Source: Massalongia carnosa
Taxonomy: Eukaryota
DNA length: 64,000 nucleotides
NCBI GenBank assembly: GCA_965645245.1
Contig: OZ287070.1
Span: forward strand, 2,108,001 to 2,172,000
Reading direction: 5' to 3'
Every line of letters begins with the position of its first letter. Position 1 is the first letter of the stretch. Position numbers and translations under genes: made by a program. The notes under the pieces are model-generated. The model was given only the letters and a program-made list of their open reading frames with translations. It had not been told where the DNA came from and did not search any database. Of this stretch, positions 3-49,012 are shown piece after piece.

Positions 3-2621
3 CAGCAACGTTCGCAGCGAATCATCCCAGATAATCAGGCAATTTATACGCCGTCAAGGTTGTCATATGAAGCTGCTCCGTCGAATCAAGCTTCCGAAGC
101 TATTCCCCCGTTACCACCAGTACATGGTGTACCGATAGATTTGGTGAACCAAAACCCTCAAATCCAAAGATATGAACCTGAACTAGATGGTACGCAAGAT
201 CGTAGTAGCTCCGAGAGTGATAGGCGAGTTAGAAGCCTCGGAGAGCGTGATGCGCAAGAGATTCGTCAAGATCTTGGACCTGCTCCACCTCCGGCACCTG
301 TCGTTGCTCCCCCTGCATTTGCACATGAGGCGGGAGCGAAACCTCACAAGAGACCCCAGGCATCCCCAGAGCTTCGCCGTGCTAATAGCAGAATGTCAAT
401 GAACACCCTTTCACAATTAGCCGATGCAGGGCAACTCGGCCATAGCGAAAGTGCGGCTACCTCAGGGCCAATGCTGTGGGATACAGATGGACAAGGGAGG
501 AGTCAAAGTTACTTGCAATCTCATGCTCAACCGGGCGAGGACGGGAGCGGGGCAAGGAACGTGGGATATTCGGAGGATAGGGGGCAACGAGGGGTAATTG
601 ACGACGCTGGCAAGAGTGGGACAAATGCTGATCATTCTTCTACTCTTGAAGGGATGGCAGTAACAATTCCTGGTCGCTCAGCCCCAAAACGTCGGCAATC
701 CGCATTTCTTTCAGCTGATACAAGTCAGCATGATCAACACCAAAACTCTTACCTGGATCGGCAGACCATGCCTACGCAAGACTCGCTTCATCCGACCAGT
801 ACTTGTCTAGAAAATTATATGTCTTCAGCACCGAATTCTACCTACTCTAACACAATCATTTCGTCCCCGTCTAAGGCGGGTCAACCGAGAAACTCCTCTA
901 CTAATATGTATCAGAATGGCTCTACAACTAACTCCAGAGCCCCGGTAGCGGATGCTACGCCACTTCCACCTATCCCTATCGCAGGTCAGCGCCCCGAACC
1001 CTACCGCTTGAGCACCAGCCATAGCATCACAAGAAAACCGCTCCCCTCAAAGCTACAGTCTCCAGTTTCTGACCCTCCTTCACCTACTTCAAGGTCAAGC
1101 TTAGAAAGCCTGCGCGAATGTTTCGTAGATGCAGACGCTCTAGACCAGATCATTCCTCGCGAATCGGATCGCTCGTATACCATGGACAGTAAATATGACC
1201 ATCACCTAGGCGAACATGAAAGTGTTTACGACAACGACTCTACAGTCTCCCCGGATTATGCGAGCACACGCAGATCAACTGAGACGAAACGCTCGAAAGC
1301 GTCGGTGGAAAGGCCTCGGGCTGGAGTTCTAAAGACTGTAGGTATTGTTGAACCTGTACGGAGTGAAGTATTGGTTGGTGACACGCGATATGGATCTGGG
1401 GTGGCGGTTCCGCAAACAAAGCCTGCCATACCAAGCGTCGATTTCGGACCTACTCCAATTTATAGACCCGGAACCAGTAGCCGCGCCTCTACTGCTGGAG
1501 TTCTAATGCAACCCACTCATGAGAGGTCAAAATCAGATAGAATGACACCGAGCCCGCGAAATCAGAGTCCACCCAATGTCCCCAGTACTAGCGATAGCTA
1601 TCCTTCAGAACGGTTGATCGAATCATATGAACGATCTCCAAGCCGCAATCTTACTACGCCGGATGGGGGGCGCCGGACTCCTGGTGGAATAGACAACGAA
1701 CATCGAAGGAGTGTTGCTTGGCAGCCTGGCGCAACAATAGGCAGTGGGAGCCCTAGTGGCCGCCAGCCCATAACACCAGAGCAGTTCGTGCAGCAGCGTG
1801 CGGCGGCAAGTCGGATCACCCCGGTTTATGCCCATGGGAGGAAAGCCTCCGGCCAAGGTACTCCACCAACAGTATCGAGAAATTCTTCCGGCGAGTGGCC
1901 TATCCAACCGCATAGCCGGCAAGTTTCGTTATCCAAAGAAGCGCCAGTTCGCCCACAATCCCGCGGGACAACAATCTCTATGAATCCCTCTGGGGACTAC
2001 TCGGCACACTTGTCTGCTCGTGAGCAGGAGCATGTGGCTCGTGTAACGGGCTCACCACTCATCAACATGGCTACTAATGCAAACAGGCAAGCACCACAAG
2101 GCGGCGGACTGATTGGTGCCATCGAAGCTCGCGAAAAAGAGAAAAAGGACATTAAAGACGGATTGAGCGGTCATATGGTTCAACATGCCATCGCCCAAAG
2201 GCAGCAACATAGCCAAGGGCACCAGAACACCCAACAGCAGTTTCCCACTCCAAGCCCGCAGATGCAGATGCCGGGGCAATTCCCTTCAAGTCCTTTCCTT
2301 GGCGCTTCGCAACAGCAGTATGGATGGACCACCACGCAACAGTTCCCGCCACAACAGCGACAGCAACAGTGGACTCCCCCTGCTGCGCAGCAGTACTGGA
2401 GCGCAACGCAGACCTCTGCGCCTCAGCAGTTGTATCAGGGGCAACTGAGGCAGAGCCCGCAGATTGGCACCTTACAGCAACAGCAGCAGCAAATGACGCT
2501 TCAGCAGCAGCAGGCGGCTTACCAACAACAGCTAGCGTACCAGCAACTACAGCAGCAGCAGCAAGGGCAGCTCAACTCTAATCCACAAAAGCAATACGGG
2601 CCTTATCTGGGTAACAAGTAG
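3..2621 (+). CDS. 3' part of a large S/P-rich, Q-rich-tailed fungal protein, tentatively the Skg3/Caf120-like PH-domain family; 5' end lies outside the window
   Basis: Frame is open from base 3 to TAG at 2619-2621. Blocks LSAREQEHVARVTGSPLINM and GLIGAIEAREKEKK precede a poly-Q tail. The family call is from memory of similar Pezizomycotina proteins; no PH domain is visible in this window. Confidence 0.7.
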   Translation, partial: QQRSQRIIPDNQAIYTPSRLSYEAAPSNQASEAIPPLPPVHGVPIDLVNQNPQIQRYEPELDGTQDRSSSESDRRVRSLGERDAQEIRQDLGPAPPPAPVVAPPAFAHEAGAKPHKRPQASPELRRANSRMSMNTLSQLADAGQLGHSESAATSGPMLWDTDGQGRSQSYLQSHAQPGEDGSGARNVGYSEDRGQRGVIDDAGKSGTNADHSSTLEGMAVTIPGRSAPKRRQSAFLSADTSQHDQHQNSYLDRQTMPTQDSLHPTSTCLENYMSSAPNSTYSNTIISSPSKAGQPRNSSTNMYQNGSTTNSRAPVADATPLPPIPIAGQRPEPYRLSTSHSITRKPLPSKLQSPVSDPPSPTSRSSLESLRECFVDADALDQIIPRESDRSYTMDSKYDHHLGEHESVYDNDSTVSPDYASTRRSTETKRSKASVERPRAGVLKTVGIVEPVRSEVLVGDTRYGSGVAVPQTKPAIPSVDFGPTPIYRPGTSSRASTAGVLMQPTHERSKSDRMTPSPRNQSPPNVPSTSDSYPSERLIESYERSPSRNLTTPDGGRRTPGGIDNEHRRSVAWQPGATIGSGSPSGRQPITPEQFVQQRAAASRITPVYAHGRKASGQGTPPTVSRNSSGEWPIQPHSRQVSLSKEAPVRPQSRGTTISMNPSGDYSAHLSAREQEHVARVTGSPLINMATNANRQAPQGGGLIGAIEAREKEKKDIKDGLSGHMVQHAIAQRQQHSQGHQNTQQQFPTPSPQMQMPGQFPSSPFLGASQQQYGWTTTQQFPPQQRQQQWTPPAAQQYWSATQTSAPQQLYQGQLRQSPQIGTLQQQQQQMTLQQQQAAYQQQLAYQQLQQQQQGQLNSNPQKQYGPYLGNK

Positions 2622-3717
2622 GTAGGAACAAGGGGTCGGTAAACTAGCGGGAGGAGAGAGGAGAGAGGAGAAGGCTTTTCTTTGTACTTAGATTTCTTTT
2701 TGAAGGATCCGGGAGGCGTAGGCTGGTTAGGGGTAGGGAAATGGAGCAAGTGGGAGGGCGAAAATAGCATGGCGTTGCACGGCATAGCGTGGCTGGCTGG
2801 ATTAGGGGTCCTAGAATGGTTTTATCATTGGACATGTTTCCGTTAGCGCCGGTAGGGAGAGGGTGGAAGCATGCATTCTATTAGAAGGTATTCATTATTA
2901 TAAAGGATTCATGAAAGGTCGTACAACCCTTTTTTAAACGAGTTGTTTGTTTGTCCAGAGGGTATAATCGAGGTAATTAATATCTAGGATCTTACTATCG
3001 CTGCCAAACCCCCCCCCCCCCCACACTGAGGATCTCGAAGCTATAAATTCCCACCAATCCAATCTTCTGAACCTCTGATCTCTCAGCCCTTTTACAAGAA
3101 ACCCTTTCTTACTCACAATTTCATTTTCCTTCTCCTCCTTATCAGAAACCCCCGTTTTGCCGTGGTGGGAGGCTTCGGTGAAGGGCAGTCCCCCTCGGTA
3201 CATACATGCTTTTGACGTTTTTTCTCTCCCCCCCCCCTCCCTTTCAATAGATTTTACACAATGGTTTAGTGTAGGTGTGGCGTAGGTAGGTAAACAATCG
3301 GTCAGGAAATGACGATCGATTATGTTCAAAAGATATGTCGCAAAATGCCGATTTCAGGCTATGTATTTGAAAAAGATGCTTGCTTTTGCGGACGCTACAC
3401 CTTTCTGTCGGGAAAGAAGGGGGGCGTAGGAGCATCAACTCGGGGGGTGTAGCGATAGCAAGATCATCTGTTTCTTGCCTTGTCTCAGAACGGTGGGTTT
3501 AAAGACGTGTCTCCCCCAACCCCTTTGTGTCTTTTCCCACCTGCAATGTTCACCACCCTGAAGTCTTGGCTCTGCGGTGTGATTTTTCTTCTCTATTGGG
3601 TATATAAAGCGCCATAGTCCCCTTGAGTAGTGGGAACATATACAATTAGAACGTAAACCTTGATATCGTCATGTCGTCCAAATCCAACCTCCACAGCAAC
3701 CAAGCTGAGGACTTTGT

Positions 3718-5762
3718 TCAAATCCACGCCCACCACTCCACCCGCCCATCCGTTCTTGGCCCAGTCTCCAGAACCGGCCCCGGTGGCAATATCTCCAATT
3801 CCCACTCTTGATTCCTGTTCCCGGCGCCAATGTTCTGCCCCCACGGCTGGTGATCCGTCCGGTGCGCAGCGCCAACGTTTCGTCCCCACGGCTCGTCTGA
3901 AAACGTCGAGGGGCAGTCGTCACTTTGGTCGGACGGCCGACGCACAGGCGATGGGTGATGATTCCTATCATTGTTCGATTTCAGGGGATCGATGATGGTG
4001 GGGGGGCGCTTGCTAGTAGCGGAGGTTAATGTTTTTCCGCTGAAGTTTTGAGTAGTGAGGGTTTCGTCGTCGGTGAGCCGCTCAGCGCCGTCTGGCGAGG
4101 GTTTAGATATGGAGAAAGCGAAGGCGGAGAAACGCGAGCGAACGGGATGAGGGGCGCGGTTGGTGAAGAGAGGACGCAAGATGGGAAGACAAACGCTGGC
4201 TGCGAGGGGCGTAAGTTGATTTTGGAGAGAAGGTGGAAGACCGAGGTGTGAAAGGGGGCGCCTACCTATGCCGAGGTGGCACTCAACTGTAAGCCATATG
4301 CCAACAGGAACAATTGTCCCTGGAATCGTTGATTAGATTGGTGTAAGCCTGGGGGTTCTTCCGGAAAAGCTTACAAGAAACGTCGGTCAGGCGGAACTGT
4401 GTGAGGAGCGGTAACCGCACAATGCACGAAACGCAGACGCTAAACGACAACAGCTCATCAACCACCGGTCGACGGATTAGGCAAAGGCGCTCGAAGGGGT
4501 TCTTACAAGCTTCCAAGCAGAAATATCCCACCAAGGAGAAACTTTTTCGATCTCGGGAGATGGAGGCTCCATAGCCAGGGGACAGGTAAAATTAACATGG
4601 CAACATTAACCGCGAGTTCGGATGAGGTGATACCGTACGAAAAGGCGATCTCATTTACACATTTACCGTCTATCGATCTGTCCCAAAAAGCCTGGACAGG
4701 AAGACAGTTGAACACAACCACGAAAATGCTGGCGATCAGCCAGGCAAGCACAAAACATCCGGTGATAACAGAAAATAACTTGAAATGATCCATGGGAAAG
4801 ATGCGGTGGTAAAAGAATAATAGAGATATGCGAGCCGCAGTCACAGAAATAGCGAAGACGATTTGCTCGAGCCAGTCATGCTGAACACATTAATCGGGCT
4901 CCTTGGTAGATGGGATTGTTACTTACCAATAAGAACATCCGAATATGGGGAAAGCTAACCATCAAGGCATGCTTGCCAAAGCCGAAACGAAGAGCTATTG
5001 CCACACTCGATATTTAGACGGATGTATATTTGCCTAACCACCCACCACTACGAAGGGATTACGCACCACTAATTTGAAGTATATTGACAACGTATCCGAA
5101 AAGCTAATCATGCAAGGAATGGTGAGCATGTTCTACCCTTGCGTTTTCCGAAGCAAGATATAGATCGGAGCATATCATACCAGGGCAATCAGGATGAACA
5201 AATCATCCAGGCCGAATCTTGCGGCCGATATCCGTCTTGCGTAGAAGCGCAGACTTACAGCCACCGTCGAGGCAAGCATCGTGGTTATTATAATGACCAG
5301 GATTTTGATATTTTGACTATCATTCAGGGAGGGAATGATGTTACTGCAGAATTCTTGCGAATAACGTAAAGTGTCTATGAGGAAACATAATCAGCAAAAC
5401 TCTGAAAACCGCAGCGAAGAGAACCTGTAGACACTATACTTTCCGGAAGAGGCCATGGAGCATGGAGTAAGGAGAAAAGTAGCATGAAACGTACCGTCTT
5501 GCTCAAACGGGCTGCACTTCCTCAGGATGGCTTTGACGAGCTTGGAAAGGAACACATCATCTCTGCAGAAACATGCCAGGTCGGTGTGACAGCTGCTGGC
5601 AGCAACCCCTTCAACCAGAGTTGGTTGCTTCACGACCAAGATCAGCCATCGTCGCCGTGAACCCGCGGACCAGTATGGGATTCGGCGCACGCTTACCACA
5701 CAAGCGGGTACGTTTTGGAGGAAGCCCAGCATGGCAGGCGTATACTCGGAGATGGCCGCCAT
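3718..5762 (-). CDS. CFEM-domain PTH11-like 7-TM receptor (fungal rhodopsin-domain family), multi-exon
   Basis: ATG at 5762. The N-terminal CFEM-like segment is PAC..SSCHTDLACFC..RKC..EFC. Spliced exons give PTH11 hallmarks LRFYARR..FGLDD, ARISLLFFYHRIF, CLPVQAFWD, LILPVPWLWSLHLPRSKK and WLTVECHLGIASVCLPILRPL. GT-AG introns were read, e.g. donor at 5696. Stop at 3718-3720. Confidence 0.88.
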
Positions 5763-6897
5763 CTTTGCAACTATCTTTTACTATCATCGATTGACGCGAC
5801 GCTGCTGATGCTGACGATGCTGACGATGCTGAAGACAGACAGGTTTACCCACATTCTTTGCTATCGTCGCGAAATGCGCGAAAGATGGAGGTGAATAGAG
5901 GAAGCGAAACTACCATGGGGGCTAATGTCAGTCTTGGGTTTTTTTGGGACGGGAGGGGAATATGTGGGGATGGCTGAACGTAGTAAATGCCATGATTTCA
6001 TGCACACCGTGACTCAAGTAGGAACGGCAGTTATGTATCAGACCAGAGGTGTATGGGCCATGGAGAATACGGAGTAAAAAGCGGGATAGGTTCCAAGGGA
6101 GGTAGGACTCTAGCGGGCGGCGGGTTGGAGGTGGGAGAAAAAGCACGACTTGGTGACTTGCTTGATGAGTCGAGAATGCCATGATGAGGCCCATGTAGGC
6201 ACGCACGCAAATCCACCGATTCTGATGCTCCGAACGATGGATTGACAGTATTTTTCCTTTTGTTTTTTTCTTTTCTTTTTCTTGTTTCCTTGATCGCATA
6301 TTTAGCGAGACGGGCAAGACGAGGTTGGAAAGAATGTTGGAATTACTCCGCAATGACAAAGTGTTTGCTTACTAACCAAATGCCTCGAGTTCATGCTGCA
6401 TTCCGTCGGCGAGATGGAAGTGAGTAAAGAAAGACGCGCTTAAGGAGAGCCTGCAACAGTTCGGGCGCCTAAGTACAAGGTACCATGCACATTTATTGGT
6501 GTGTTATCATCTGTACAGACAAATAAAGTCTATTCGTCGTGTTCCGCCTTCCTTTTCCGCACTCTTACAGATTACTCTGTACACCATACAATACAATAAA
6601 ATACAGAGTAACTACCTATTCCCTTGCTTCTAAGTGGCCCTTATCATTCATCCTTCACGCATGAGTGATCCATGAATGGCGAAAGGCTAACTGGCCGAAA
6701 ACAGTTAGTGCAAGAATCCACGTAATCTGTCTTGAGAAAACAAAACTACCACCCTACCATTAGGGCCAGCGCTGACAGGAATCGAACCTAATAAATGAAT
6801 TAATGCGACTTCTTGCTCCTTCCAGACTGATATCCGAGAGATACCTGGTAGAACATCACCGAGGAAAGGCTCGATGCGTAGCCAAAATGTTTCAAGG

Positions 6898-7018
6898 CTA
6901 CCCTGCAACCCTACACCCTTACACCCCTGCACCCCTACACCCTTACACCCCTGCACCCCTACACCCTTACACCCCTGCACCCCTACACCCCTACACCCTT
7001 ACACCCCTGCACCCCTAC
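6898..7018. repeat. Minisatellite of 8-bp units (ACACCCCT/GCACCCCT/ACACCCTT) with a 24-bp higher-order period; G-run-rich on the minus strand
   Basis: Directly visible, about 15 units. It generates spurious PYTPAPLH and QGCKGVGV ORF repeats. Confidence 0.95.
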
Positions 7019-7425
7019 TCTGTAAGTACTACGTACACCCCTGAAAGTACGCCCCCAAAAGGTGCACCACCCGGAACCCTCAAGAGTTCATCTTATCCCG
7101 TGTCTACGTACTAGCCTGCATAGTTAACGTACTCTGTAGACCAAACAGAAGATGAAACCGAGCGGAATCAAAAAAGCCTTGTGGACCCTAGTTTCGGTAA
7201 GTACTCGTAGCTGGAAATGGCACTAGAAGGGCTTAGAAGGGCTGAAACAGGTATAGTTATAGCGGCACAAATATCTTCCGCGTCCGGAAGAAACTATGAT
7301 GTCAGTATGTGGCCCTTGGCGTTTACGAACATCCAATTTCCTAAGCGTGGAATGTTCTACAGCCTTGAAACGTTTCCACATTGTACTCCATTAGCCGCAC
7401 CTCTAGGCCCGGCACTCCTTCCAAG

Positions 7426-19900: not shown

Positions 19901-20709
19901 CTAAACATCAGGGAGCTCTACGGAAAGGGGGGTATCCTATAGGAAACCCCATTACCCGGAAAGGGACGAGGTAGAGATACGACAAGGCGTTCACCAGCCG
20001 TATGTGTGTGGTAAATGCGGTTTACTTCTACATAAAGCTACTTCGACCTCGCTTCCCGGAGAAGAAAACAGAAGAAAAGCTTTCGGGATGCGGTGGGGCT
20101 GAAACTGATGGCATTTCGTCAATGTTCCGACAAAGAAAAACACCAGGAGCATATAACCGGGATTGCTCAAATCATCACCCCTGCGAACGAGAAAGAGACG
20201 AATGATCAGGGGATGTGCCCTAAAGGTTCTTATAACAGAGGAGGGGATTCAACGTTGTCCCAAAACAACTAGCCACAACACGTCAAATCCGAAAAAAAGG
20301 AGTTACTCGAGGTCTATAGAAGAAGAGCCCTGCAACAACTCGATTTCATATATTATAATATACTATATCGATTCCAGTGAGCTTGCGGATTCCACGAAGT
20401 TTGAATATTGGTAAAGTTTCCGGTTGGGACTTACGTTCCCCTTCAGCTCGTTTCAAAAGCTGCGATGATCAACGATTCATCTCACGTCGGTCTCTTCTGA
20501 AAGATGCTGCTCGGTCAACGGGGTCCGTAATCTACCAGTACCGTGCTGTGCCGGTGTCTTGTGGAGTGTAAAGCAAGCAGTCAGTGTTCTGTAAATTTTC
20601 TCGGGTGCAAGTGGCAGCCGTAGAAGATGAGAGAGGCGAAATGTTCCTATAGGAATCATGGTTAGTTGCGGAAAAATTGGAGGGAGATGACCCGTTGTTT
20701 TTAGGTTTA

Positions 20710-20784
20710 CACCCGTTTGCAAAATGGTGTGCCGAACTTTGAACCCCGAGACTGCGCGACCACACACCAGAATTTGGTGCAGTA
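20710..20784 (+). repeat. Outer part of the left TIR of element B
   Basis: 20710-20758 is the reverse complement of 26981-27029. 20758-20784 is a 27-bp block repeated directly at 24494-24520. Confidence 0.92.
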
Positions 20785-20834
20785 CTGTCGCTTGCAAAAG
20801 GGTCTGCGCGGACCCTGAAATGGCCACGACACCT

Positions 20835-20994
20835 CAAAATTTAGCGAAAATAACGACCAACCAGCCAAACTTCCCTCACCGTCTATGTGATAACTATGCA
20901 TTACTACCTGTTCTAGTACTGAAATTCGTAGCTGTAGAATATAGTCACTGCCATCCCCAGCTCCTCCGCCCTTGCCCGCTCTATTTTTCGTCAA
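20835..20994 (+). repeat. Left long inverted repeat of element A
   Basis: 160 bp, reverse complement of 24287-24446 with about 6 mismatches by eye. Ends just before the transposase ATG at 20996. Confidence 0.93.
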
Positions 20995-20995
20995 G

Positions 20996-22035
20996 ATGCC
21001 TCGCCCCCTCAGTCCCGCCATGAGGGAGACAATTACCCTCAGATTTGTAAGAAATGACGATAACAAAAGAATAGCAGCTGTCACCGGAGTCAGTCTTCGG
21101 CAGGTGCAATTGATGAGGTCCAATTGGACGAATTTTGGAGACGTCGTCGCTCCACAAATAACTCTTGGTCATCGACCTAGAAAGTTGAGTCAGTATCATG
21201 AATTGCAACTGTTGGAATTCCTGGAGCAACGCCCCCATGCCTACCTGGATGAAATGTGCTGGTTTGTCTGGGATGAATTTCAGATTTCCGTCGACGAATC
21301 CACTGTCAGTCGTGCCCTCAGACGACTTGGTTGGAATCGAAAGAAGGTGAGACGTCAGGCAGCTCAACGGAATCAAACTCTACGCGACGGTTGGATGCAA
21401 CGACTAGGAGGTTGGACTGCCGAGCAATTGGTCTTCCTAGACGAAAGTGCCGCGTGTGAAAGAACCGGTATTTATCTTCCTATCTTCTTCTCATCTTTCT
21501 TCTCATCTCATATATAGGTGATCGTCGATACGGCTGGGCACCGGCCGGTGTTCCTGCGACCATGGTTCAGGATTTGAGAAGGTCAAAGAGATGGAGCATT
21601 CTTCCTGCATTTACGGTCGATGGATATATAGCTTGGGAGGTGCATCAGGGCTCCATAACTGCATTGATCTTCAATGATTTTGTTCTAAATCACGTCCTTC
21701 CTCATTGCACTGCCGACGGAGGTCCTAGATCTGTTTTAGTGTTAGATAATGCTCGAATTCATTGGAATGACGATCTCATTCAGATGTGTGAGGCTGCCAA
21801 CGTCACCTTGGCAAGACTACCTCCTTATTCTCCGGATTTCAATCCAATTGAGACGTCGTTTGCATTGCTGAAAGCATGGATTCGTCGAAATGGAGAGATG
21901 AGTCTCTCATATACAGAGGTGTATGGAGGGTTCGGACAATTTCTTCGGGATGCAGTCAAAGAAAGAAGTCGAATGGGAGACCCGGGAAATTTATTTAGAA
22001 TGGCCGGTATTCAGTATCCCACTATTCAGATCTAG
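20996..22035 (+). CDS. Tc1-family DD34E transposase (HTH + DDE_3-like), 2 exons, apparently intact, 329 aa
   Basis: Exon 1 is 20996-21467, followed by a 50-bp GT-AG intron (21468-21517) and exon 2 at 21518-22035. Catalytic motifs VFLDESA, LVLDNARIH and LPPYSPDFNPIE, with 34 residues between D2 and E. N-terminal HTH regions RIAAVTGVSLRQV and VDESTVSRAL. Confidence 0.95.
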
Positions 22036-22086
22036 ATCTAGATTGCTGTCTGCAGACATCTTGTCTGTCTCATTTCGAAATCTAAT

Positions 22087-23841
22087 CTAATATTCTTCTT
22101 CGGCATAGTCGTATTCTAGATTATACGTATTTTCCAACTCATCCTCCTCAATGGCATCTTCCATTCTCGGATCAACCCTTTTTATCTCCCCTAGTGTCTC
22201 ATCCACCTCTTCCTCATCCACCTCTTTTATGACCTGAGTATTGGCCTGAGTGGTCATTTGCGAAGTTGGCAGGTAACGTGGACGTCGAGACATTTGCCGA
22301 GACGGGGGCGGAGGCATTCGCCGAGAGGAAGGCGGAGGCATTTGCATCTGCATCTGTCTTCCAAATTTGCTGACATCTCGTGCCAGCTGAATTCCGATAC
22401 CGGGAGGAATACTCAGCTTCGACCAGAAGGACTGATGCTCAATACCCTTTAATGTCTGGATAGTCATTAAATCGTACCCACCTTCCATCAGTCGATCGTA
22501 CGCATGCCTAAGTACGCCTTTCAGATGAGGTTTGGATTGGATATGCCAATTGACATAGTCTTCCAAATCTTCCTCCACTGGACTGCTCGGAGCGGCGGGA
22601 GGGGCGACGACGGAGGGGGCATAACTTCCTTGACGATCTCTTCGATCCACAGGCGTTTCGTCTCGATGACGTCCGAAGTCGGAAGCTTGAGAAGGAGAAT
22701 AAGAAGGAAACTGGGACGAATGAAGCTGGGGAAGTGGTGAAGAAGGAATAAATGCCGAGGGGTTGGCAAATGCTAAGGGGTTGACAAACGTCGAGGGGGG
22801 GGCAAATGCCCAGGGGGGGAAGGATTGATACGCGGGATGCTGATAGATGGGATGCAAATGTCTGGTCGAATCTTCCTGACTTTCCTGTTTCGGAGTCGAT
22901 GATGCAGTCTTCCTTTTACCTTTTTGCGAATACATACTTTCCCTGATAGTCGATGGAGGCATCTGAGAAGTGACTCCCGAAACGTCATCATCCAATGCCT
23001 TATTCCAAGCCACGAACTGATGACTGCTGATAATGTAATGTTGATCTCTTTCTTCATCGTTCCAACAGTATCGGCCGAAATTCTCACATGTCTTCTTATT
23101 ACAGACATGCAGAGATTGTAGAGCCGTCATTCTTTCAACTGTCTGACCATGAAGAATGGCCCTCTCCTCCAACTCCTTCTGCAATTTCAAGGTGGCCGTT
23201 CCCAACTTTTTGGAAACGGCAGCAGTCGGATCTTCTGGAATTTCACCGCTTTTGGTCCGAGCGAATTGATAGATTAGATCGACGGCCAAACTTTTTGCTC
23301 CATTCTCATATCGGAAAATCAAGACTTCTTCAATTGGAAGCCAAGACTCTTCCAACATCAGAGACATACGTTCTTGAGGTTTGATGCCATTCCATGCAAC
23401 AGTGGCTTTGACATTGACTAGTCGACAAGCAAAAGTTTTGTCATCTGCATGACGTTGAGCCTTTAAACTCATCTCATTGAGATGAGGTCTGAAAAAGAAT
23501 CTCTTTTCGAATTCCGATTCCGAGTTAACTTTTCGAGTACTGGACATCTGATGAACGACATCCTTTTCAAACATCACCGGCACATTCAGCAGGTAGGTGA
23601 TGACAATGGGCGAGTCTGACGAGGGCGTCTTCTTGGTCTTGGTACGTGGATTTGACTTTGGCTTTCTAGTAGTGGCATTTTTGACAATCTTCTTTGCAGC
23701 AGAAACGAAAACATTCTCCTCAGCACTCTCGACTTCTTCCTCAACATTCCCCTCGGCAATCTCCTCGACATTCCCCTCGACATTTTCTACATCTACGTCA
23801 TTCTCCGAGTCAATTGTATCATCTTCGTCATCCGGGACCAT
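22087..23841 (-). CDS. Transposon A accessory protein (584 aa): acidic/basic N-terminus, Cys/His cluster, P/S-rich linker, SAM-like helical domain, acidic tail
   Basis: Long uninterrupted ORF inside the TIRs of A. Contains HVCNKKTCENFGRYCW..H and YDLMTIQTLKGIEHQSFWSKLSIPPGIGIQLARDVSKF. The same frame continues to an ATG at 24264 but is blocked by stops in the 20-bp repeat. Confidence 0.8.
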   Translation of the reverse strand: MVPDDEDDTIDSENDVDVENVEGNVEEIAEGNVEEEVESAEENVFVSAAKKIVKNATTRKPKSNPRTKTKKTPSSDSPIVITYLLNVPVMFEKDVVHQMSSTRKVNSESEFEKRFFFRPHLNEMSLKAQRHADDKTFACRLVNVKATVAWNGIKPQERMSLMLEESWLPIEEVLIFRYENGAKSLAVDLIYQFARTKSGEIPEDPTAAVSKKLGTATLKLQKELEERAILHGQTVERMTALQSLHVCNKKTCENFGRYCWNDEERDQHYIISSHQFVAWNKALDDDVSGVTSQMPPSTIRESMYSQKGKRKTASSTPKQESQEDSTRHLHPIYQHPAYQSFPPWAFAPPSTFVNPLAFANPSAFIPSSPLPQLHSSQFPSYSPSQASDFGRHRDETPVDRRDRQGSYAPSVVAPPAAPSSPVEEDLEDYVNWHIQSKPHLKGVLRHAYDRLMEGGYDLMTIQTLKGIEHQSFWSKLSIPPGIGIQLARDVSKFGRQMQMQMPPPSSRRMPPPPSRQMSRRPRYLPTSQMTTQANTQVIKEVDEEEVDETLGEIKRVDPRMEDAIEEDELENTYNLEYDYAEEEY

Positions 23842-24000
23842 TAGGGATGCATAATAATTCGAGCCGGGAGGCGGCCTGGGCTTGATAATGGGAGGGGGCT
23901 TTGCTTTGGGAGGCTTTGCTTTGGAAGACTTTGCTTGGGGGGGGCGCTTTGTCTTGGGAACGATCTTTTGCCTGCGAGATGCCTTCGGAGCTGAGGTTGG

Positions 24001-24146
24001 CGTCGATATGGGATCATCGTCGTCGCTATGGGATCATCGTCGTCGATATGGGATCATCGTCGTCGATATGGGATCATCGTCGTCGATATGGGATCATCGT
24101 CGTCGATATGGGATCATCGTCGTCGATATGGGATCATCGTCGTCGA
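24001..24146. repeat. Tandem repeat, 7 copies plus a partial copy of CGTCGATATGGGATCATCGT (20 bp)
   Basis: Directly visible. One substitution in copy 2 at position 24026. Confidence 0.97.
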
Positions 24147-24286
24147 CAGCATCTTTGCCCTTCGGCCCCGCCAAGGTCAGTTTTATCTTTGCCTTTACAG
24201 GCTCTGTCGAGGCATTTGGAGGCCCGGTATTCGCTCGTTTTGAGCGAGGACCTCTTAGTTTCATGTCGAAGAATGGGGGGGATAAT

Positions 24287-24446
24287 TTGACGAAAAATAG
24301 AGCGGGCAAGGGCGAAGGAGCTGGGGATGGCAGTGACTATATTCTACAGCTACGAATTTCAGTACTAGAGCAGGTGACAATGCATAGTTATCACATAGAC
24401 GGTGAGGGAAGTTTGGCTGGTTGGTCGTTGTTTTCGCTAAATTTTG
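24287..24446 (-). repeat. Right long inverted repeat of element A
   Basis: Reverse complement of 20835-20994. Ends 22 bp before the ATG at 24264 on the minus strand. Confidence 0.93.
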
Positions 24447-24460
24447 TTTGTAAGCGACAG

Positions 24461-24570
24461 TAAAAAAAAAAAAAAAAATAAGCGACAGAATTGGACCACA
24501 CACCAGAATTTGGTGCAGTAGCTAATAGCCCTCCTCCCCTTCACACTGCCCTTTGCAGTCTATAGGATAA
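24461..24570 (+). repeat. Inner part of the left TIR of element B, displaced by element A
   Basis: TA-polyA-TAAGCGACAGAATTGGACCACACACCAGAATTTGGTGCAGTAGCTAAT..GCAGTCTATAGGATAA is the imperfect reverse complement of 26876-26979. Confidence 0.9.
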
Positions 24571-24635
24571 TATGGTTAATGATATCCTTTTGATTGTCGT
24601 TTGTATGAACTTTCAACGTAGTTATTCCAGTCATC

Positions 24636-25453
24636 ATGCCTCGAAAACAGCCTCCTAAACAGCCTTCAAAACAGCCCCCCAAACAGCCCTCCAAACAATC
24701 ATGAAAACGGGCATCTACTACTGAATTACCTAGGAACTCAGCACCTTCATTTAAACAAAGGCTTAGAATCAATCCTCCCTAGATCATCATCACCAAGTTT
24801 AAATGCTCGTATTCCTGATCTTCCATCACGTCCACCTTTACCATCTCCTCCAGCTTCTCCTTCGGCTTCGCCTTTACCTCCTCATCGTCTCCTCCTCCCC
24901 GAGCCAAGGAATGTCCGTCCGACTCGCAGTAGTACGCCTTCTCCTTGTCTTTCTGAGCTATCTAGTGCTCCTGAACCTGAGCCTGAGCCTGAGCCCGAGC
25001 CTGTTTTGTTTACTCTGATTTACAAACCAAACCATTCAGCAGTGGAAAGGTACTGTTTATGAGGAAAAATGGGAGAAAATGGGAATCGAACCTGGCATCG
25101 GCATACGTTTGGCTCGCGATGTCAGCAAATTTGCTAGACAATTGAAGCAGCAGTCATCCGAGCACGATTCTGAACCTATAATTGTTCCTCCTCCTCCATC
25201 AGAATCACGTACCTCTAGTCAATCTTTGCCAAAGAATTTCCGGCCAAGCTTCAATGTACGTCCGCTAACTACTGGGACTACACAAAAGGCTTTGAATGAC
25301 GAGGAGGAGGGAGAGGAGAAGGAGGAGGACCTTGACGAGGACGAGGAGGAGGAAGAGGAGGAGGACAATCAGGAGGACGAGGAGGACGAGGAGGACGAGG
25401 AGGATGAGGAGGATGAGGAGGACGAGGAGGATGATACGGAAGACAGTAGCTGA
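24636..25453 (+). pseudogene. Accessory gene of element B, homologous to 22087-23841; carries nonsense codons and an internal deletion
   Basis: ATG 24636 gives MPRKQPPKQPSKQ, with TGA at 24702. After about 25030 it reads QTIQQWKGTVYEEKWEKMGIEPGIGIRLARDVSKFARQL, matching MTIQTLKGIEHQSFWSKLSIPPGIGIQLARDVSKFGRQM of A. It ends in an E/D tail. The central Cys/His region is missing. Confidence 0.82.
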
Positions 25454-25477
25454 TGAGGAAATTGATTTTTATGAGTT

Positions 25478-26812
25478 TTATTCAATACTAGACTGTCGAA
25501 ACAATGCACCTGCATCATGTGAAACATCTTCACTTATAGCCTGTAGTGCTATGAAAATATAGCTTCACTTTGTAGGTATAATAGCATGATTGTCATTGAA
25601 GGTGTGGATTATATGTGAGCTATCTACTCATTATATAGCAGTCACATTGAAGACTTTCCGGCGACCCCCTTTCATAGGGAGTCAGCTGGTCCACTGATTC
25701 TCGGTCCCCAGAGGTCACTTCGGCCCCCGTGGTAGGGTCACCAAAGATAGGCACTAGACGGATGCCCATGATGGTAGTCTAACAGTTCTTACCATCTAAC
25801 ACTTACCCTCTAACAGTTCTTACCATCTAATAACTAGATGGATGTTAGATGTTAGTCCTTACCATCTAACAAGTGCATCTTCTAAAAATCTCCCAAATCC
25901 ACCAGATTCCTCTATATATGAATCAATTAAACTACTGTGACGTTTAATCCAGGCCTTAAGAATAGAGAATGAAGTCTCTATTGGATTAAAATCGGGTGAT
26001 TACGGAGGCAAATGAACCAGCAAAACATATGCATCCTGACACATGATCCTCAATTCCTCACTCCAATGTGTAGAGGCATTATCCATAATCAAAACCGAAC
26101 GAGGACCATTACCTCCAGCGCAGTATGGTAAAACCTTGAGCCTGACGAATTCATTCAGAATATCTGATATTATAGAGCCATGATGCACCTCCCAAGCTAT
26201 GAAACCGTCGATGGTGAACGCTAGTAATATACTCCATCTCTTAGAAAGTTTGAGCGCTTGAATCATGGTCGGTTTGATTCCTGGTGCGGCCCATCCATAT
26301 CGACGATCACCTAAAGTAATAACAATTAGCAAAGAAACTGAAGTTCTTCAAATAGTACTGACCAGTATGCTCGCATGTAGTGCTTTCGTCCAGAAAATCA
26401 ACTGATCAGCCCTCCATCCTCCCAGTCTAATCATCTTCTCATCACGCAAAGATTGGTTGCGTTGTTATGCTATACGAATAGCCATCTTTCGATTCCAGGC
26501 CATCTGTTTAAGAGTTCGAGAAACCGTAGACTCGCTCACCAAAACGTCGAATTCATCATACAAAAACCAGCACATCTCGTCCAAATAAGAGGTAGGTCTC
26601 TGATCCAGATACATGAGTAGTTGCTCGATTTGTTGTTGATTCATTTTCTTGCGCCGGCCAGTAGCAAGCTGAGGTTTTGCAACCTCACTGAAATGTTCCC
26701 AATTATGTCTCATCTTACGTAGTTGTCTAATGCTGACACCAGTAGCATCTTCATCCGATTCCAGTCTGAACTTTATAGCCTTGCGTTTGATGATGCTGAA
26801 TGATCGTCCCAT
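25478..26812 (-). pseudogene. Tc1-family DD34E transposase pseudogene of element B
   Basis: ATG 26812, with motifs YLDEMCWF, LDES, DRRYGWA, LIMDNASTH and LPP*SPDFNPIE. Stops at 26465-67 and 26000-02, frameshift near 26397. Intron 26362-26311 is at the same position and phase as in A. The C-terminus LQAISEDVSHDAGALFRQSSIE* resumes after the insert at 25550-25871. Confidence 0.92.
25550..25871 (-). mobile_element. Solo-LTR-like insertion (322 bp) in the transposase of B
   Basis: Flanked by the 5-bp direct repeat AGTGC (25545-49 and 25872-76). The minus strand starts TGTTAG, ends TTTCATA and has an internal TATATAA. Removing the insert restores the transposase frame. Confidence 0.8.
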
Positions 26813-26875
26813 GTTTGCTTTTGAAACTACGAGGTAGCAAGAATAAAGATCTACATGAAAACACTACATATCATT

Positions 26876-27029
26876 TATCCTACAGACTGCAAAAGGTGGT
26901 GTGAAAGGGAGAAGGGCCATTAGCTACTGCACCAAATTCTGATGTGTGGTCCAATTCTGTCGCTTAATATTTTTTTTTACCGCGCAGTTTCGGGGTTCAA
27001 AGTTCGGCACACCATTTTGCAAACGGGTG
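26876..27029 (-). repeat. Complete right TIR of element B (about 154 bp)
   Basis: The outer 49 bp pair with 20710-20758. The inner ~105 bp pair with 24461-24570. Confidence 0.9.
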
Positions 27030-30000
27030 TATTGATCCAAAGCGATCATCACGTGAGAAATCCATGCTCGGGAAATGGAATATGTATCTGATGGGCTATG
27101 TGTTGTCTCTGTAAGTAATATTTACCTTTCAGATGCTTCAAACCACTTCGAAGAATATATGCGAATGATGATGAAACCGTACACCCCATCAAGATGACGA
27201 GTTTCGGTGCCGCAGAACTAGTTTTTCTTAACCCAGTTATCCGGTGATGAATGTTATCGTTCCTGCAAGTATTTCTCGAGGAAGAAGAAGAATCCGCTCT
27301 CTTTCCACACTCAAAAGTCATCTATAGGAAGGAACGGCACTCCCTTTAGAAGCTAAAGTATGAGATCACCCGGAAACCTCAACTGAGGGACTTTTTATAA
27401 GCATGGTCGATGTTTCCTTCCGGCGTGGAGGAGACACCTTCCAGCCGAGGTTGTGACGTCCGAGGTCTTGCAGAGGAGCGAGATCAAGCTGCCTAAAGCA
27501 CGTTTAGTATTTCTCATGTTCACGATTTAAAAAAAATCTCCTCTATTTCAAAGCCCCAGTGCGCAACAAAAAGTTCTTGTCCGCCTTCGATAGGATGCAG
27601 AAACCGTGATATCAACACGGAACAAAACATAGCCTTGGCGGTGCAGAAGGTCTTACTCTGAAAGCAAACTGAATTACAATCGAAGCTCAATCGGGTCGAA
27701 AATGATACATCTTCACTCGATGCCAATATAGACATGGCTCAGATCCAGAGCTTTTATGGTATTTAAAGAGTAACCAGAGTGCTGTTTCTAAAGGATCGAA
27801 GAAATGAATGACATTGCGTTTTCAAAAAAAAAAAAATTTTACGTGCAATATCCAACGGGGCAACTATTATAAAAAGCTAGCGCAGACTAGATTCTCTGCT
27901 TGCCTACGAGACCCGGGGAAATTCCAAATGATATTTCCCTACGCGTTCGAAGAGGTCTGATACACATGTGTGGACGAGGGTGGAACCAAAATACTCAAAC
28001 TACTCCACTAGTTTAGTTCTCCACCGTGCAATCACTAGTTCGGCTTTGAGACCTGTCGTGGCGTATTAAATGAGCTAGCCATAGATCTCACGATCTGTTC
28101 AACTTTGTGACCTCTTCGTTCGCCGAACATCTCTGACCGAACATCTTGATCTAGATCCACCGGTCTTCTGTGCTCGTCTAGAGCTCTGGTTTAGTTGTAG
28201 ATCGGCTTTCTTTAGGCGGTAGGGTTGGTTTGCGGGGACTGCATGGGAGCTTCTTGAACCACTGGGCGAGGAAAATTCTTGTTGACGATCGTAATTTATG
28301 CAGGAGAGTCTCTTGGCTCATTTGCGAAGCGCAATCTAGAGTTTTCAGCAAACCCTTTGCTAATCATATGTATTGGGCAACGCAAAGTGTTGGGCGGGCA
28401 TTAATTCTCATTGTTTCGGACTTGTAGACCGTTGTGAAATGTGGAATCGATTCCGCCCCTATTCGACTCCGAATAGTTGAAAACTCAAGACCAAAACGTT
28501 GCATTCGAAGAGGGTGTGGTCTTCAAACTCAGCACTTTGGGTCCCGTGATCCTCCTCCTCTTCAGATGGCTAGTCTTCCAAGGTTATCAAATGGGAAATT
28601 TAAAAAAGGAAAAGAATGCTGAGATTGAAAAAAATCAGAATAATATTAAACCCCTAGCTTCCACTTGCCAAGATTTTTGGGATCAACAAGTCTAATATTA
28701 ATCTCGTACCCTATAGAACTTGTTCATATTTTCTTTCTTCATCATCTATTCCCCATCTCTTCTACATACTACCTTCCCTCTATCCTTCTGCGGTTACATC
28801 ACATTGCTACTCCATTTGGCATCAATGGCAGCTAAAGTTTTAAGATATGGTCTAAGCGGGCAACGCAGGAGGATAGAACTGCCTTGCCAAAAGTTTCAGG
28901 ACCAAACGAGAGAATTTTGGTAGCTGGAAATGTTGTGCGTGCAGGTTGAGAGACTACAGCCAAAAAATCTTGAAACCCAACCCTAATCGGAACGCGTATA
29001 TTTTATGGTCGTGCTTCATTCTATCAAGAGCTAGCCTCTTCTATTCTCCGACAAGGAGTCTGACTGTATTCAACAGCGTCTTGATGGTCAACATCTCACT
29101 CCTTCATCTAAATTGGGCTTCGCTTTATAACCTGGGTGTCGAGCGCTCTTCGGCAACTTCTCTACAAGGCTAGTTATTTTCCATTAAAGATAGATGTTCC
29201 TGTTGGAGTACTAGTACAGTCCTACCAGCACTTGCCCTAGGCACAAGCCGGTGAACCCACATACAGTAGTGCACTTCTTTACGGGTGCACCTGGCCCATC
29301 GGGGAACTTAGGCTAAATCGTCAGCATTGTTGGTAAAACCAGTTATCTTTCAATGGTTATAAATTATCTTCTGTCTCCCATTAGATGTGCATCCAAGATG
29401 TCTGTTTTGTATAACAATACCTACGTCTGTCAGTCTAGTTCATGTGACCTCGTATTGCTTCTATTTCTAAGGTTGGCGGAAACACAGCGATCTGCACCTC
29501 GCTGGCGCCGTCACTCTCGCCGGCGCCTCTACCTAGCGCCCCCTTTCGGGCCTTGTGCAGATCGCGGTGGATACTCCCTCTACCTCTGCGGCTGAGACCT
29601 GGAGTGGGTGGGCGGGTCAAAAACTACTATGCAGTGCTAACTCCGAATCCGAGATGATGAGGAGATGTAGGACTGCTTTGGCCCTCTATAGCCTCCATCT
29701 CCCCCCTGTCATCCATCCTTCCCTACCCGACCCCCCGTCGTTATCCGAACCAGCTCCTGGCGGATAACCGTGCAAAACCGAAGAGGTCCGGATTTTGCAT
29801 CACCTGTTGTCCCCGTCATGCGTGGAGAACCGCTGGTAGTCGATCCGCTGGTAGCCGAATCCGCTGGTAGCCGAATAGCATCAGTCCCGCACTAGCTCTC
29901 GCCATAGACGAACTAGTAAGTGAAGCATCTTTCTCAACATTCCGTTGTTGCTATGATTGCCAACAGCTGTAGGGATCCAGGAAATCCAGAGTTTCAATGT

Positions 30001-33940: not shown

Positions 33941-35484
33941 TTATGTCCATTTTAACGGCGTGACAAGGTTCCCTTTATATATTGTCAATCGTTCTTTTGG
34001 AGGATCATAGACAATCTCCTGAATGGTGTTTCGTGGCCTTGAGCCTTGAGCCTCCGATTCCCCCTCAGTCGGCTTGCTGCCGAAAATGACGAAATCTGCG
34101 TTCGCACCCTCCTGCAGCAGTGGGGTAGTGGAGGCAAAGCCAATAGCGGCTTTGGCGCGGGAGGATACGCACTCCTGATATACTCATACCGTTTAGCCTA
34201 CGTATGGTGTATCATCAAGGACCTAGACGCGAGGTAGGTAGGGTTACTCACGTAGAGGAGCTCCGTATCTTCCTTAGTGCCAGCTTGATAGAGCCCGACC
34301 CCCATGCTGGCTAATGCCATTGGATCACAGCCCCCCTGCGGCGTAAATGCATTGCCGACGTTGTTGATGCCGATGGAGCCGTTGAGAAAATATTTCCGGA
34401 TCATTTCGGGAATCTGCAAAGTTCCTCGGACCCGTTGGCCACCCCCTTCTTTCTCATCGGGCTTTCCCATCATGTATAAGTCTGATGTGGGGAGGCCGAC
34501 GAAAAAGATAGGTAGATCTCCAATGCGGGTTCGCAAGTAACGCCATTCTTCTGGGTTGAACAGGGTCAAGCGGGTGCAGTGGCTCAGAACAATGGTTTTA
34601 TCCTTCGCATTTGTTTTCCAGTCTTGCGCTTCAGCTGCTTTGATTACGTATTCTACCACCGAGGCTTGTTCGGGGTCAAGGTTGTAATCTAGATGCAAGT
34701 CTAAGTGCTTGCCGTACCTCAGTGCGGTTGACATTGCCCAATCTATGTTAGCACGTGCTAAAACTGCATTGTCTTCCACATATGGAGTGCTTCCCAGGAC
34801 ATCTACGGCTTCCCGCCCCAAGGCCTCCTCAATCAATGTGGCACCACCAGAATTGTTGTTGCCTTTGGAGAGTATGGGCTCCTGAGCAAAAACACATATC
34901 TGAATATTGCAGGAATCTCTATACTCTTTCTTAAGCCTTAGGCACGCGTCAAGACATTTGAACTTGACAGTTGTATCAACTTCAACAAAAGCCCGCATGC
35001 ACGTAACGCCAGCGGCAATACTCTCTGTAACAAGCCAACGGCCTCTGCGCAAGAGGTCGTCATCCTCGAATCTCGACTTCGCCTCAGCGCTCAGGGCAAG
35101 GGCCTCCTGAAAGTCGCCTGTGAGAACCCTCAGATCGGAATATTTAGGATCAGACAGAAGGAAGCATTTATCGAGGTGGATATGGGGGTGGCACAATGAT
35201 GGCGCAAGCACTCGACCCCTCGCATTTATTGTTCCGGACGGATACAATAATTTTCCTGTCGAAGCGTTATGCGGAACTAGGGAGCTAATGGTTCCCGCCG
35301 CAATGTTTATATCCACGAGATTATGCGCTTCTGTCGGTAATCGTACTCCGGTCAGCGTGTGAATGGCCGGTAAGGCAGAATGCGCAGGGCTAGAACCACC
35401 GACGTCTAGCGCATCTCCGAACTGGACCTTGGACATCTCGTACTGAAGATCAATGCCATGCCTTCGGAGGAAATCCGCAGCCAT
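33941..35484 (-). CDS. Metal-dependent amidohydrolase, bacterial-type cytosine deaminase-like family, 2 exons
   Basis: ATG 35484. Metal motif HPHIHLDK, plus GVTCMRAFVEVD, HLDLHLD, LSHCT and GINNVGNAFTPQG. Intron 34251-34175. Exon 2 reads ECVSSRAKAAIG..GANADFVIF to TAA at 33941-43. Confidence 0.9.
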
Positions 35485-47803: not shown

Positions 47804-49012
47804 ATGCCTCGTGTCAGCTGCAAAGTGCAGCTGGAAAGAGATTTGCGTTGTCTTTACTTTCTACATGATGCTACTGCATCATCATCGGATGAATCGGATG
47901 AAGCATTGAATTTCCTACTTCTAGCAGAAGGAATTCAAGAACAGCGTTATTTAACGCCCCGATTATTCGTTCCCAAATCCAATTGGGCGTCAGCTGTCCT
48001 TCCCAACCTTTCGGATGATCGATTCCGAAGTCTGCTACGCATGAATCGCTTTTCCTTTGATCATGTTCTCGGCTTAATTCGAAATGATCCCGTCTTTTTC
48101 AATAAATCTCGTGTCCCTCAAGCCTCCGTGGAACATCAGCTAAAATACGCTCTTTTTAGAATGGGACATGACGGTAGTGCCAGTGGATTCCTTCCTACAG
48201 CTACCATGTGGGGGATATCAGAAGGGCATGTTTTTAACTGCACCAAACGGGTGATAGAAGCACTGTGTCGGCTAAAGAATGACTTCGTTCAATGGCCCAG
48301 TGAAAGAGCTAGGATAAGAGAAAATTTGACCAATGATCAGAGACAAGATGGATTTATCGGGGTCGTTGGCAAGGTGGATGGTACCGACGTTGTTCTACAT
48401 ACAAAACCAGGTGGTAAATACGAAGGCGAGCTATTCTTCAACAGAAAAAAGAGATACGCGATGGATTTGTGTGCCGTATGTGACTCGAATAAAAGGTTTA
48501 TTTACTTTCTCAGTAGATGGCCAAATTCTCAGCATGATCAGCGTATATTCGCCGCAGGTGATTTGTGCCGGAATCCCGCCTTTTATTTCTCTCCCGGTCA
48601 ATATCTATTGGGTGACAGTGCCTATACGAATTCCACGTATCTGGTGACTCCATACAAGGCGCCGCATACTAGAGATCCGGATATTCGTCGATTCAACAAA
48701 AGACTGTCGCGAATTCGTATAGACATAGAACATGCATTTGGAATTCTGAAAAGAAGATGGAAAAGTCTGACCGGGCTGAGAATTCGAGTCAGGAACAAGA
48801 AAAGCTATACCTACGTCATCAAATGGATAACTGCATGTGTGGTGCTTCATAACATTCTTCAAGACATTCGAGATGAATGGAATGAAGAAGAAGGATGGTG
48901 GACAGAAGAAGAAGAGGCACATGACGAAGAATTGAAACAGCTAATCAGCAGTCAAATGACTGAAGGTCTGATCACAAGAGATCAGGTTAAACGATTGGTC
49001 ATCGGCAGTTAA
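47804..49012 (+). CDS. PIF/Harbinger (HARBI1-like, DDE_Tnp_4) transposase, 402 aa
   Basis: Open ORF with FRSLLRMNR.SF, GKVDGTDV, FFNRKKRY, WPNSQHD, YLLGDSAY and RIDIEHAFGILKRRW. Confidence 0.93.
   Translation: MPRVSCKVQLERDLRCLYFLHDATASSSDESDEALNFLLLAEGIQEQRYLTPRLFVPKSNWASAVLPNLSDDRFRSLLRMNRFSFDHVLGLIRNDPVFFNKSRVPQASVEHQLKYALFRMGHDGSASGFLPTATMWGISEGHVFNCTKRVIEALCRLKNDFVQWPSERARIRENLTNDQRQDGFIGVVGKVDGTDVVLHTKPGGKYEGELFFNRKKRYAMDLCAVCDSNKRFIYFLSRWPNSQHDQRIFAAGDLCRNPAFYFSPGQYLLGDSAYTNSTYLVTPYKAPHTRDPDIRRFNKRLSRIRIDIEHAFGILKRRWKSLTGLRIRVRNKKSYTYVIKWITACVVLHNILQDIRDEWNEEEGWWTEEEEAHDEELKQLISSQMTEGLITRDQVKRLVIGS

Follow-up and report, generated by a model that had tools for sequence, protein, structure and literature searches.

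Tc1/mariner elements are the textbook one-gene transposons: a transposase flanked by a pair of inverted repeats is considered sufficient. The locus described here raises the question of what a second long open reading frame (ORF) is doing beside the transposase of such an element. It lies in a 64,000-nucleotide (nt) stretch of Massalongia carnosa DNA (Eukaryota; NCBI GenBank assembly GCA_965645245.1, contig OZ287070.1, positions 2,108,001 to 2,172,000 of the forward strand), the whole of which we call the window. We refer to the frame as ORF2, to its product as P0001 and to the element as element A. Our analysis shows that ORF2 belongs to a real, conserved and unannotated protein family, and we conclude that a Tc1-like (DD34E) cut-and-paste transposon of a fungal host most likely carries it as a second gene beside the transposase gene. 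A preliminary description of the window had pointed to an accessory protein that combines a putative zinc-binding Cys/His cluster with a SAM-like domain; the range flagged there, 22087-23200, corresponds to residues 214-584, the C-terminal two thirds of ORF2. Pattern and predicted fold support the combination of a zinc cluster with a SAM-like domain; membership in a known family is not supported.

The features of element A, in window coordinates, are as follows.

20708..20994, no strand: left terminal inverted repeat, from arm pairing; single-copy contigs end at 20723
20996..22035, plus strand: Tc1-like DD34E transposase gene, two exons with a 50-nt GT..AG intron at 21468-21517, 329 amino acids from the ATG at 20996
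22087..23841, minus strand: ORF2 (P0001), candidate accessory gene, a single open frame of 584 codons (584 amino acids)
24001..24146, no strand: tandem array of 7.3 copies of 20 nt upstream of ORF2
24287..24462, no strand: right inverted repeat without its outer part, followed by poly-A at 24462-24478; 24447-24462 assigned by eye against the left repeat

The transposase matches Pfam families DDE_3 (3.3e-20) and HTH_33 (2.8e-07). Its frame is intact, being open once the 50-nt intron is spliced out, and the spacing from the second Asp to the Glu, as counted from the printed sequence, is 34. The DDE_3-type DD34E transposase, the terminal inverted repeats and a TA duplication together place element A in Tc1/mariner, with the TA at 20708-20709 as the likely target-site duplication. 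The inverted-repeat arms 20835-20994 and 24287-24446 are 96% complementary over 160 nt. The outer 51 nt of the left repeat (20708-20758) pair at 98% with 26981-27031, the outermost 51 nt at the far end of a neighboring element B that is described below. ORF2 is tail-to-tail with the transposase gene and their stop codons are 51 bases apart. Both genes read inward, the transposase from an ATG 2 nt inside the left repeat and ORF2 from an ATG 446 nt inside the right repeat.

Copy number was assessed with contigs covering the region from three DNA runs of two studies. In run X1, the word depth was 458 in the single-copy flanks and 3057 in ORF2 (∼6.7x), which corresponds to about seven copies, and unique contigs stopped at 20723 and restarted at 27004. 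Clustering at 90% identity puts P0001 in a group of six proteins that come from six large contigs. Three of these proteins are full length, and the two other than the window copy differ from it by 5 and 6 residues. Since the copies are multiple and nearly identical, the element family has moved recently. The tandem array upstream of ORF2 varies in copy number between element copies; in run X1, another copy is six units shorter (joint 24000->24121, 120 nt skipped).

Relatives of ORF2 and their gene context

Scanning 1.84 billion protein representatives yielded 130 relatives of ORF2 at E <= 1e-3, 48 at E <= 1e-10 and 4 at E <= 1e-30, many of which are fragments. The alignment used throughout (A1, 131 sequences) leaves out P0123, a protein of 1745 amino acids with chitobiase and BNR domains and five short matching stretches. 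A word-indexed protein search returned few relatives (3, 4 and 9 proteins). The sole named relative is a "hypothetical protein" from a Leptodophora species, recorded on 4 contigs. With the intron of the transposase gene, this relative gives the DNA a eukaryotic and fungal appearance. When 25 long relatives were compared with Pfam, 23 had no match; the exceptions were the excluded P0123 and P0026, which carries a piece of DUF7924 at its N-terminus and is probably a merged gene call. Extending the comparison to all 131 members at E <= 1 revealed no recurrent family, the commonest matches occurring in 4/131.

To place the family in its gene context, we compared a 12-row alignment with metagenome contigs and obtained two loci, L001 and L002; with this query, contigs of prokaryote genomes and viral contigs gave no relatives. 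The ORF2 relative of L001 lies on the plus strand and converges on an intron-bearing transposase gene (minus strand, 6009..7038) whose product is 52-56% identical to that of the window, and the gene pair lies inside inverted repeats (127 nt at 98% and 62 nt at 100%). These repeats are 98-100% identical despite the decayed ORF2 copy between them. In L002, an ORF2 fragment with a frame change is followed by a convergent transposase fragment. ORF2 thus converges on a Tc1-like transposase in 4/4 places with visible context, namely element A, element B, L001 and L002. Clear inverted repeats are present in two of these elements, A and L001, and in both each gene starts beside one repeat. The gaps between gene start and repeat are 20994-20996 and 23841-24287 in the window and 3403-3613 and 7038-7055 in L001. 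Because each gene starts near one repeat and reads inward, the same repeat sequence could serve as promoter for both genes. The 20-nt tandem array of element A was also considered as a conserved binding site and was ruled out, since L001 has no comparable array.

Predicted folded modules of the ORF2 product

Neither sequence search of P0001 gave a match, with 0 Pfam families at E <= 1 and 0 Protein Data Bank (PDB) chains at E <= 10. The full-length AlphaFold2 model, built from the 131-row alignment, has a mean predicted local distance difference test score (pLDDT) of 70, and 258 residues at 90 or above fall into three blocks. From the N-terminus, the protein comprises an acidic-then-basic tail, a beta-grasp domain (81-196), a long helix with a CCCH cluster (216-308), a Pro/Ser linker, a five-helix domain (425-500) and a basic-then-acidic tail. 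Residues 1-75, 311-422 and 505-584 are predicted to be disordered; the first segment is acidic then basic, with 10 Lys/Arg in residues 49-78, the second is Pro/Ser-rich and the third is basic then acidic. The linkers show no conservation, and the conserved positions sit in the three folded modules. All of the segments below are on the minus strand.

22918..23196, minus strand (ORF2 216-308): CCCH module with a long helix, the cluster C247/C252/C259/H268, a beta-hairpin and two helices bearing W279 and P295-P296; pLDDT ∼97, from the model and the alignment
22588..22917, minus strand (ORF2 309-418): Pro/Ser-rich linker, predicted disordered, pLDDT ∼40, with 19 Pro and 19 Ser in 311-420
22342..22587, minus strand (ORF2 419-500): SSP motif and five-helix domain of SAM-like fold; pLDDT ∼95-98, from matches to SAM, RAD51 N-terminal domain and NusA and from conservation
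23242..23607, minus strand (ORF2 79-200): predicted beta-grasp domain, PB1-like in shape, from the predicted structure

The motif H-x-C-x4-C-x6-C-W-x7-H that was first noticed in the translation is present at residues 245-268 (window 23038-23109), as is the W..PP pattern downstream of it (W279, P295-P296). In the model, this block consists of a long helix, a cysteine knuckle, a hairpin (258-262/267-270) bearing C259 and H268, and two helices. ORF2 has four cysteines in total (139, 247, 252 and 259), and the probability that three of four would fall inside 13 residues if placed randomly is ∼0.005. Conservation of the Cys/His residues among homologues had been named beforehand as a test, and we counted it in the 74 homologues from the alignment that cover at least 60% of residues 236-305. 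All four of C247, C252, C259 and H268 are kept in 62/74, with single counts of 69/74 for C247, 69/74 for C252, 70/74 for C259 and 68/74 for H268. Further conserved columns are N254 (60/74), W279 (69/74) and P295 (60/74). The first His of the noted motif fared differently, since position 245 is His in 16/74 and Trp in 38/74. The five-ligand H-C-C-C-H cluster is therefore reduced to its three Cys and second His, and the conserved ligand set is C-x4-C-x6-C-[WY]-x(4-8)-H (CCCH), with four ligands. The pattern and its conservation indicate that the cluster likely binds zinc. We found no zinc-finger family match for the module in Pfam and no significant PDB match by sequence or profile; fold searches with the full model listed matches to the other two domains. 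Atlas look-alikes of the zinc region scored 0.75 and were uninformative.

The helical block noted after the Cys/His motif is also present (residues 426-493), and the model resolves it into five helices over residues 426-500. When residues 410-505 were folded alone with a 40-row alignment, the mean pLDDT was 86, the core reached ∼95 and the predicted template modeling score was 0.71. Conservation is strong here as well: S419-S420-P421 is found in 76-80 of 85-87 sequences, and W432 (77/97), A447 (80/95), L451 (84/96), W473 (78/94) and I478 (79/94) follow. A G-I-G hairpin sits between helices 467-475 and 480-488, ahead of the last helix, and its columns are G481 (75/88), I482 (60/87, with Leu in 17), G483 (58/87), L486 (72/88), A487 (47/88) and V490 (52/88). 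Across the 86 sequences that cover the block, the signature reads S-S-P, Y/F-I-x-W, A447, L451, I-Q, W473 and L-x-I-x-x-G-I-G-x-x-L-A-x-x-V. A G-hydrophobic-G hairpin between two helices with matching flanks is the helix-hairpin-helix (HhH) pattern, and the last part of the signature agrees with the HhH consensus.

Fold comparisons of this domain gave SAM and HhH modules side by side. At least 22 of the best 50 matches listed are SAM domains, either by title or through a residue range shared with an entry that is titled SAM, and ten are HhH modules (four NusA acidic repeats, five N-terminal domains of RAD51 or RAD51 paralogues and one Mus81 HhH). The HhH modules, in particular the RAD51-paralogue N-terminal domains and NusA acidic repeats, score within 1 Z and share the fold class. 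The search with the full model agreed (5jti_A 6.4; 8faz_C 5.8, root-mean-square deviation (rmsd) 2.0 Å over 57 residues). Foldseek found no PDB match to the isolated domain at E <= 0.001, and its weak rows were the SAM domains of Scm, CASKIN2 and Tric1 together with the RAD51C N-terminal domain. Rescoring of its own 67 matches produced a tie, with the RadA/RAD51C N-terminal domains at 5.2-5.3, Tric1 SAM at 5.0, Ph/Scm SAM at 4.9 and NusA at 4.9. The proposed AlphaFold and Foldseek check thus returned five confident helices and weak SAM and HhH likenesses, short of any match at the above threshold. From the model, the C-terminal domain is predicted to have the SAM-like five-helix fold common to SAM and HhH modules, and the two tie in their fold scores. 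The SAM-like assignment accordingly stands as a predicted fold and falls as a profile: P0001 matches neither SAM_1 nor SAM_2 nor any other Pfam family, and no SAM family is among the 25 best-matched families of the 131 members or recurs among them. The conserved G-I-G-x-x-L-A hairpin fits the HhH consensus and so tilts our reading slightly toward a role in DNA contact.

Other likenesses were of less use. Atlas look-alikes of the C-terminal part were unnamed fungal clusters (0.87-0.88) and a SAM cluster (0.84), which we regard as a lead only, and a fold search of a viral structure library gave no match. A marginal PDB-profile match (E 0.004-0.007) aligned a helical segment of Lon protease with SSP..YIDW..A..L at residues ∼415-462 (window 22456-22599). 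It is probably due to chance, because it is short, lies partly in the linker and has no Lon entry beside it among the fold rows listed.

The beta-grasp domain is a third predicted module, located upstream of the flagged range and not noticed in the preliminary description. Residues 79-235 form a conserved block in 36 sequences, and the model arranges residues 81-194 as strand-strand-helix-strand-strand-helix-strand. In fold searches with the full model, other beta-grasp proteins score just under the best PB1-like matches. Foldseek matches of the full model to superantigens (E 2.5e-3, rmsd ∼10 Å) were read as generic beta-grasp likeness. Pfam gave no PB1 match for P0001, and no PB1, SAM or zinc-finger family occurs among the families listed for the 131 members (best 25 of 64). 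The basic and acidic (OPCA) motifs of PB1 were not seen by eye in the 36 aligned N-terminal domains; these have a conserved Tyr in the first strand and no conserved acidic cluster.

Element B and other transposon genes of the window

Element A is followed by element B, a diverged relative.

24467..27031, no strand: element B, with its own repeats at 24467-24570 and 26875-26978 and a far end equal to the 51 nt of A
26812..25871, minus strand: transposase remnant of element B, 52% identical to the transposase of A
25031..25201, plus strand: what is left of the final helices of the C-terminal domain of ORF2, from tblastn; an ORF runs at 25079..25453

Element B retains only the end of an ORF2-like gene. 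As the preliminary description had remarked, this end is still recognizable: tblastn aligned residues 460-514 with 25031-25201 at 52.6% identity (E 1.2e-10). The left repeat of B lacks the outermost 51 nt that its right end has, and the TA dinucleotides at 20708-20709 and 27030-27031 flank the A+B composite, not A alone. Since TA is found only at these outer ends, the 6.3-kb A+B unit (20708-27031) may have been mobilized or rearranged as a whole. Contig depth puts B-type sequence several-fold above A-type sequence.

The window also has ORFs at 45533-47014 (minus strand), 47804-49012 (plus strand) and 50171-51214 (minus strand), and further transposon genes are among them, a pogo/Fot1-type DDE_1 ORF (6.5e-30) and a PIF/Harbinger-type DDE_Tnp_4 ORF (1.7e-29). 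The nearby ORF of 347 amino acids without a Pfam match might encode a Harbinger partner protein. Two other long ORFs, at 393-2621 (plus strand, 742 amino acids) and 34198-35484 (minus strand, 428 amino acids), have no Pfam match at E <= 0.001.

Candidate roles and known systems

What ORF2 might do can be weighed against its modules and its position. The role that we favor, and to which we give about an even chance of being correct, is that of an accessory factor serving the element. ORF2 would enter the nucleus by means of its basic stretch, and its CCCH module would hold one structural zinc ion. The HhH-like G-I-G hairpin, the zinc module or both would then make contact with the DNA of the inverted repeats, which are unusually long, and the beta-grasp and SAM-like modules would bind either ORF2 itself or the transposase, helping to bring the two ends together. 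By analogy, such a role resembles that of the Myb-like protein of PIF/Harbinger and TnpA of En/Spm.

Several observations weigh against an accessory role. DNA binding, zinc binding, self-association and transposase contact are all properties that we infer for ORF2, P0001 has no Pfam family, and none matches more than 4 of the 131 members. The gene context comes from four places, three of which are decayed (L001, L002 and element B), so that only A is intact. The L001 relative (4918-5898) keeps its CCCH set intact and has an in-frame stop directly after the His; its match runs through three reading frames, with two frame changes upstream of the stop. Nor does a comparison at short range show purifying selection, as the other run X1 copies differ from the window copy by 4 amino-acid changes and 1 silent change.

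The shared gene context bears on two other explanations. ORF2 could stand outside the cut-and-paste reaction and counter host control, for example by binding the chromatin or RNA of the element to block silencing, much as VANC proteins act against silencing for plant VANDAL elements. Its retention beside transposases that share only 52-56% identity from element to element, its adaptor-type, non-catalytic modules and its long, disordered, charged tails are what such a protein might be expected to show. However, the same evidence is equally compatible with a direct role in transposition, and we regard an anti-silencing function as improbable. Still harder to sustain is a captured host gene carried as a passenger without a role for the element. 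Capture of genes such as Fanzor1, nucleases and methyltransferases is described for Mariner/Tc1 elements (PMC3627910). However, the same gene occupies the same convergent position in 4/4 places although the elements have diverged strongly, most of its database relatives are fragments, which is what transposon copies would give, and the only named relative is a hypothetical protein on 4 contigs. We therefore judge a passenger very unlikely.

The modules themselves suggest further possibilities. The C-terminal domain could be a true polymerizing SAM domain that, together with the PB1-like domain, builds head-to-tail polymers which scaffold the transpososome or spread along chromatin, the two outcomes suggested in the preliminary description; the SAM domain would then make no direct contact with DNA. 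Given the SAM and PB1-like fold matches above, we consider this the least unlikely of the alternatives, although unlikely. A more elaborate version makes ORF2 a polymer builder in which the head-to-tail PB1-like and SAM-like modules, the zinc module and the flexible linker form a filament or condensate on the long repeats, pairing the ends or excluding the fungal silencing machinery. We give this version little probability. If true, it would give mobile elements a counterpart of Polyhomeotic or p62-type assemblies and would be, to our knowledge, the first accessory protein with a demonstrated role in a eukaryotic Tc1-like element. Lastly, the CCCH ligand set and SAM-like fold could belong to an RNA-binding regulator of the element's own transcripts, in the manner of Smaug/Vts1, which use a SAM domain for RNA binding. 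However, the spacing C-x4-C-x6-C-x8-H differs from that of the classical RNA-binding CCCH finger (C-x8-C-x5-C-x3-H), Pfam gives no zinc-finger match, and no Smaug or Vts1 entry appears among the best 50 fold matches listed. An RNA regulator is accordingly as improbable as any explanation considered here.

Should ORF2 be an accessory factor, the consequences would reach beyond this locus. Harbinger, En/Spm and Mutator elements have helper proteins, and a fungal Tc1-like lineage that keeps a second gene would show that a helper evolved in the Tc1/mariner superfamily too. Among the four copies, the transposases have diverged to about half identity, while the three-module second protein has kept its position. 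Since ORF2 has no Pfam family or useful name, gene callers report its copies as hypothetical proteins, and recognizing the family would improve transposon masking in fungal genomes. Were the helper to pair ends or counter silencing, it would also open a way to study how such elements keep their activity in fungal hosts.

We compared ORF2 with what has been described for related elements. A full-text literature search, with Repbase outside its coverage, returned no description of an ORF2-type gene in the text available. The available portion of a survey of fungal cut-and-paste transposons (PMC5751038) does not mention a second gene like ORF2, nor do the available portions of fungal genome and transposon papers PMC4188875, PMC3158057 and PMC4112212. 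The two-ORF "Trem" elements of Paracoccidioides were rejected as a precedent; they are split or CENPB-plus-DDE transposases and not accessory genes (PMC2836289). Ciliate TBE and Tec elements carry three ORFs, including a zinc-finger protein in TBE (PMC7325037), and Fanzor1, nucleases or methyltransferases are found in Mariner elements, which also have TA duplications (PMC3627910). Like element A, these elements are of Tc1/mariner type and combine extra ORFs with a transposase that is DD34E or related. ORF2 differs in its fungal host and in being conserved in position, not swapped between elements. An identity with Fanzor1 was also rejected: the TnpB-like motif with a C4 zinc finger described in PMC3627910 is absent, and because ORF2 contains no more than 4 Cys, of which the CCCH set takes up three, and has no Pfam match, it lacks the C4 finger and conserved nuclease motif of Fanzor.

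At the level of single modules, the closest known systems include the SAM domains of tankyrase, SARM1, Sans, BICC1 and PHC3/Scm. The HhH modules of RAD51, RadA and RAD51-paralogue N-terminal domains, NusA acidic repeats and Mus81 belong to the same fold class as the C-terminal domain; ORF2 differs in having one such hairpin only, and here DNA binding is a prediction. In overall layout, ORF2 resembles PB1-domain adaptors such as p62 and NBR1, in which PB1 comes first, a ZZ zinc finger and a linker follow and a small helical domain forms the C-terminus. The predicted modules of ORF2 come in a similar order (PB1-like beta-grasp, zinc module, long disordered linker and small helical domain). However, the sequences are unrelated, CCCH takes the place of ZZ in the zinc module, the last domain has five helices and not the three of a UBA domain, and the PB1 signature residues were not seen by eye.

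As whole systems, PIF/Harbinger and En/Spm are the nearest counterparts. Their second, non-catalytic proteins (Myb/SANT-like in PIF/Harbinger and TnpA in En/Spm) are thought to bind the element ends and help the transposase, and like element A they are cut-and-paste elements that encode a transposase and a second non-catalytic protein of their own. They differ in belonging to other superfamilies, and ORF2, whose role is predicted, has no Myb/SANT match and carries beta-grasp, CCCH and SAM-like modules instead. Taken together, a DNA transposon that carries its own helper gene is of an already known kind, and what is new here is the ORF2-type candidate helper.

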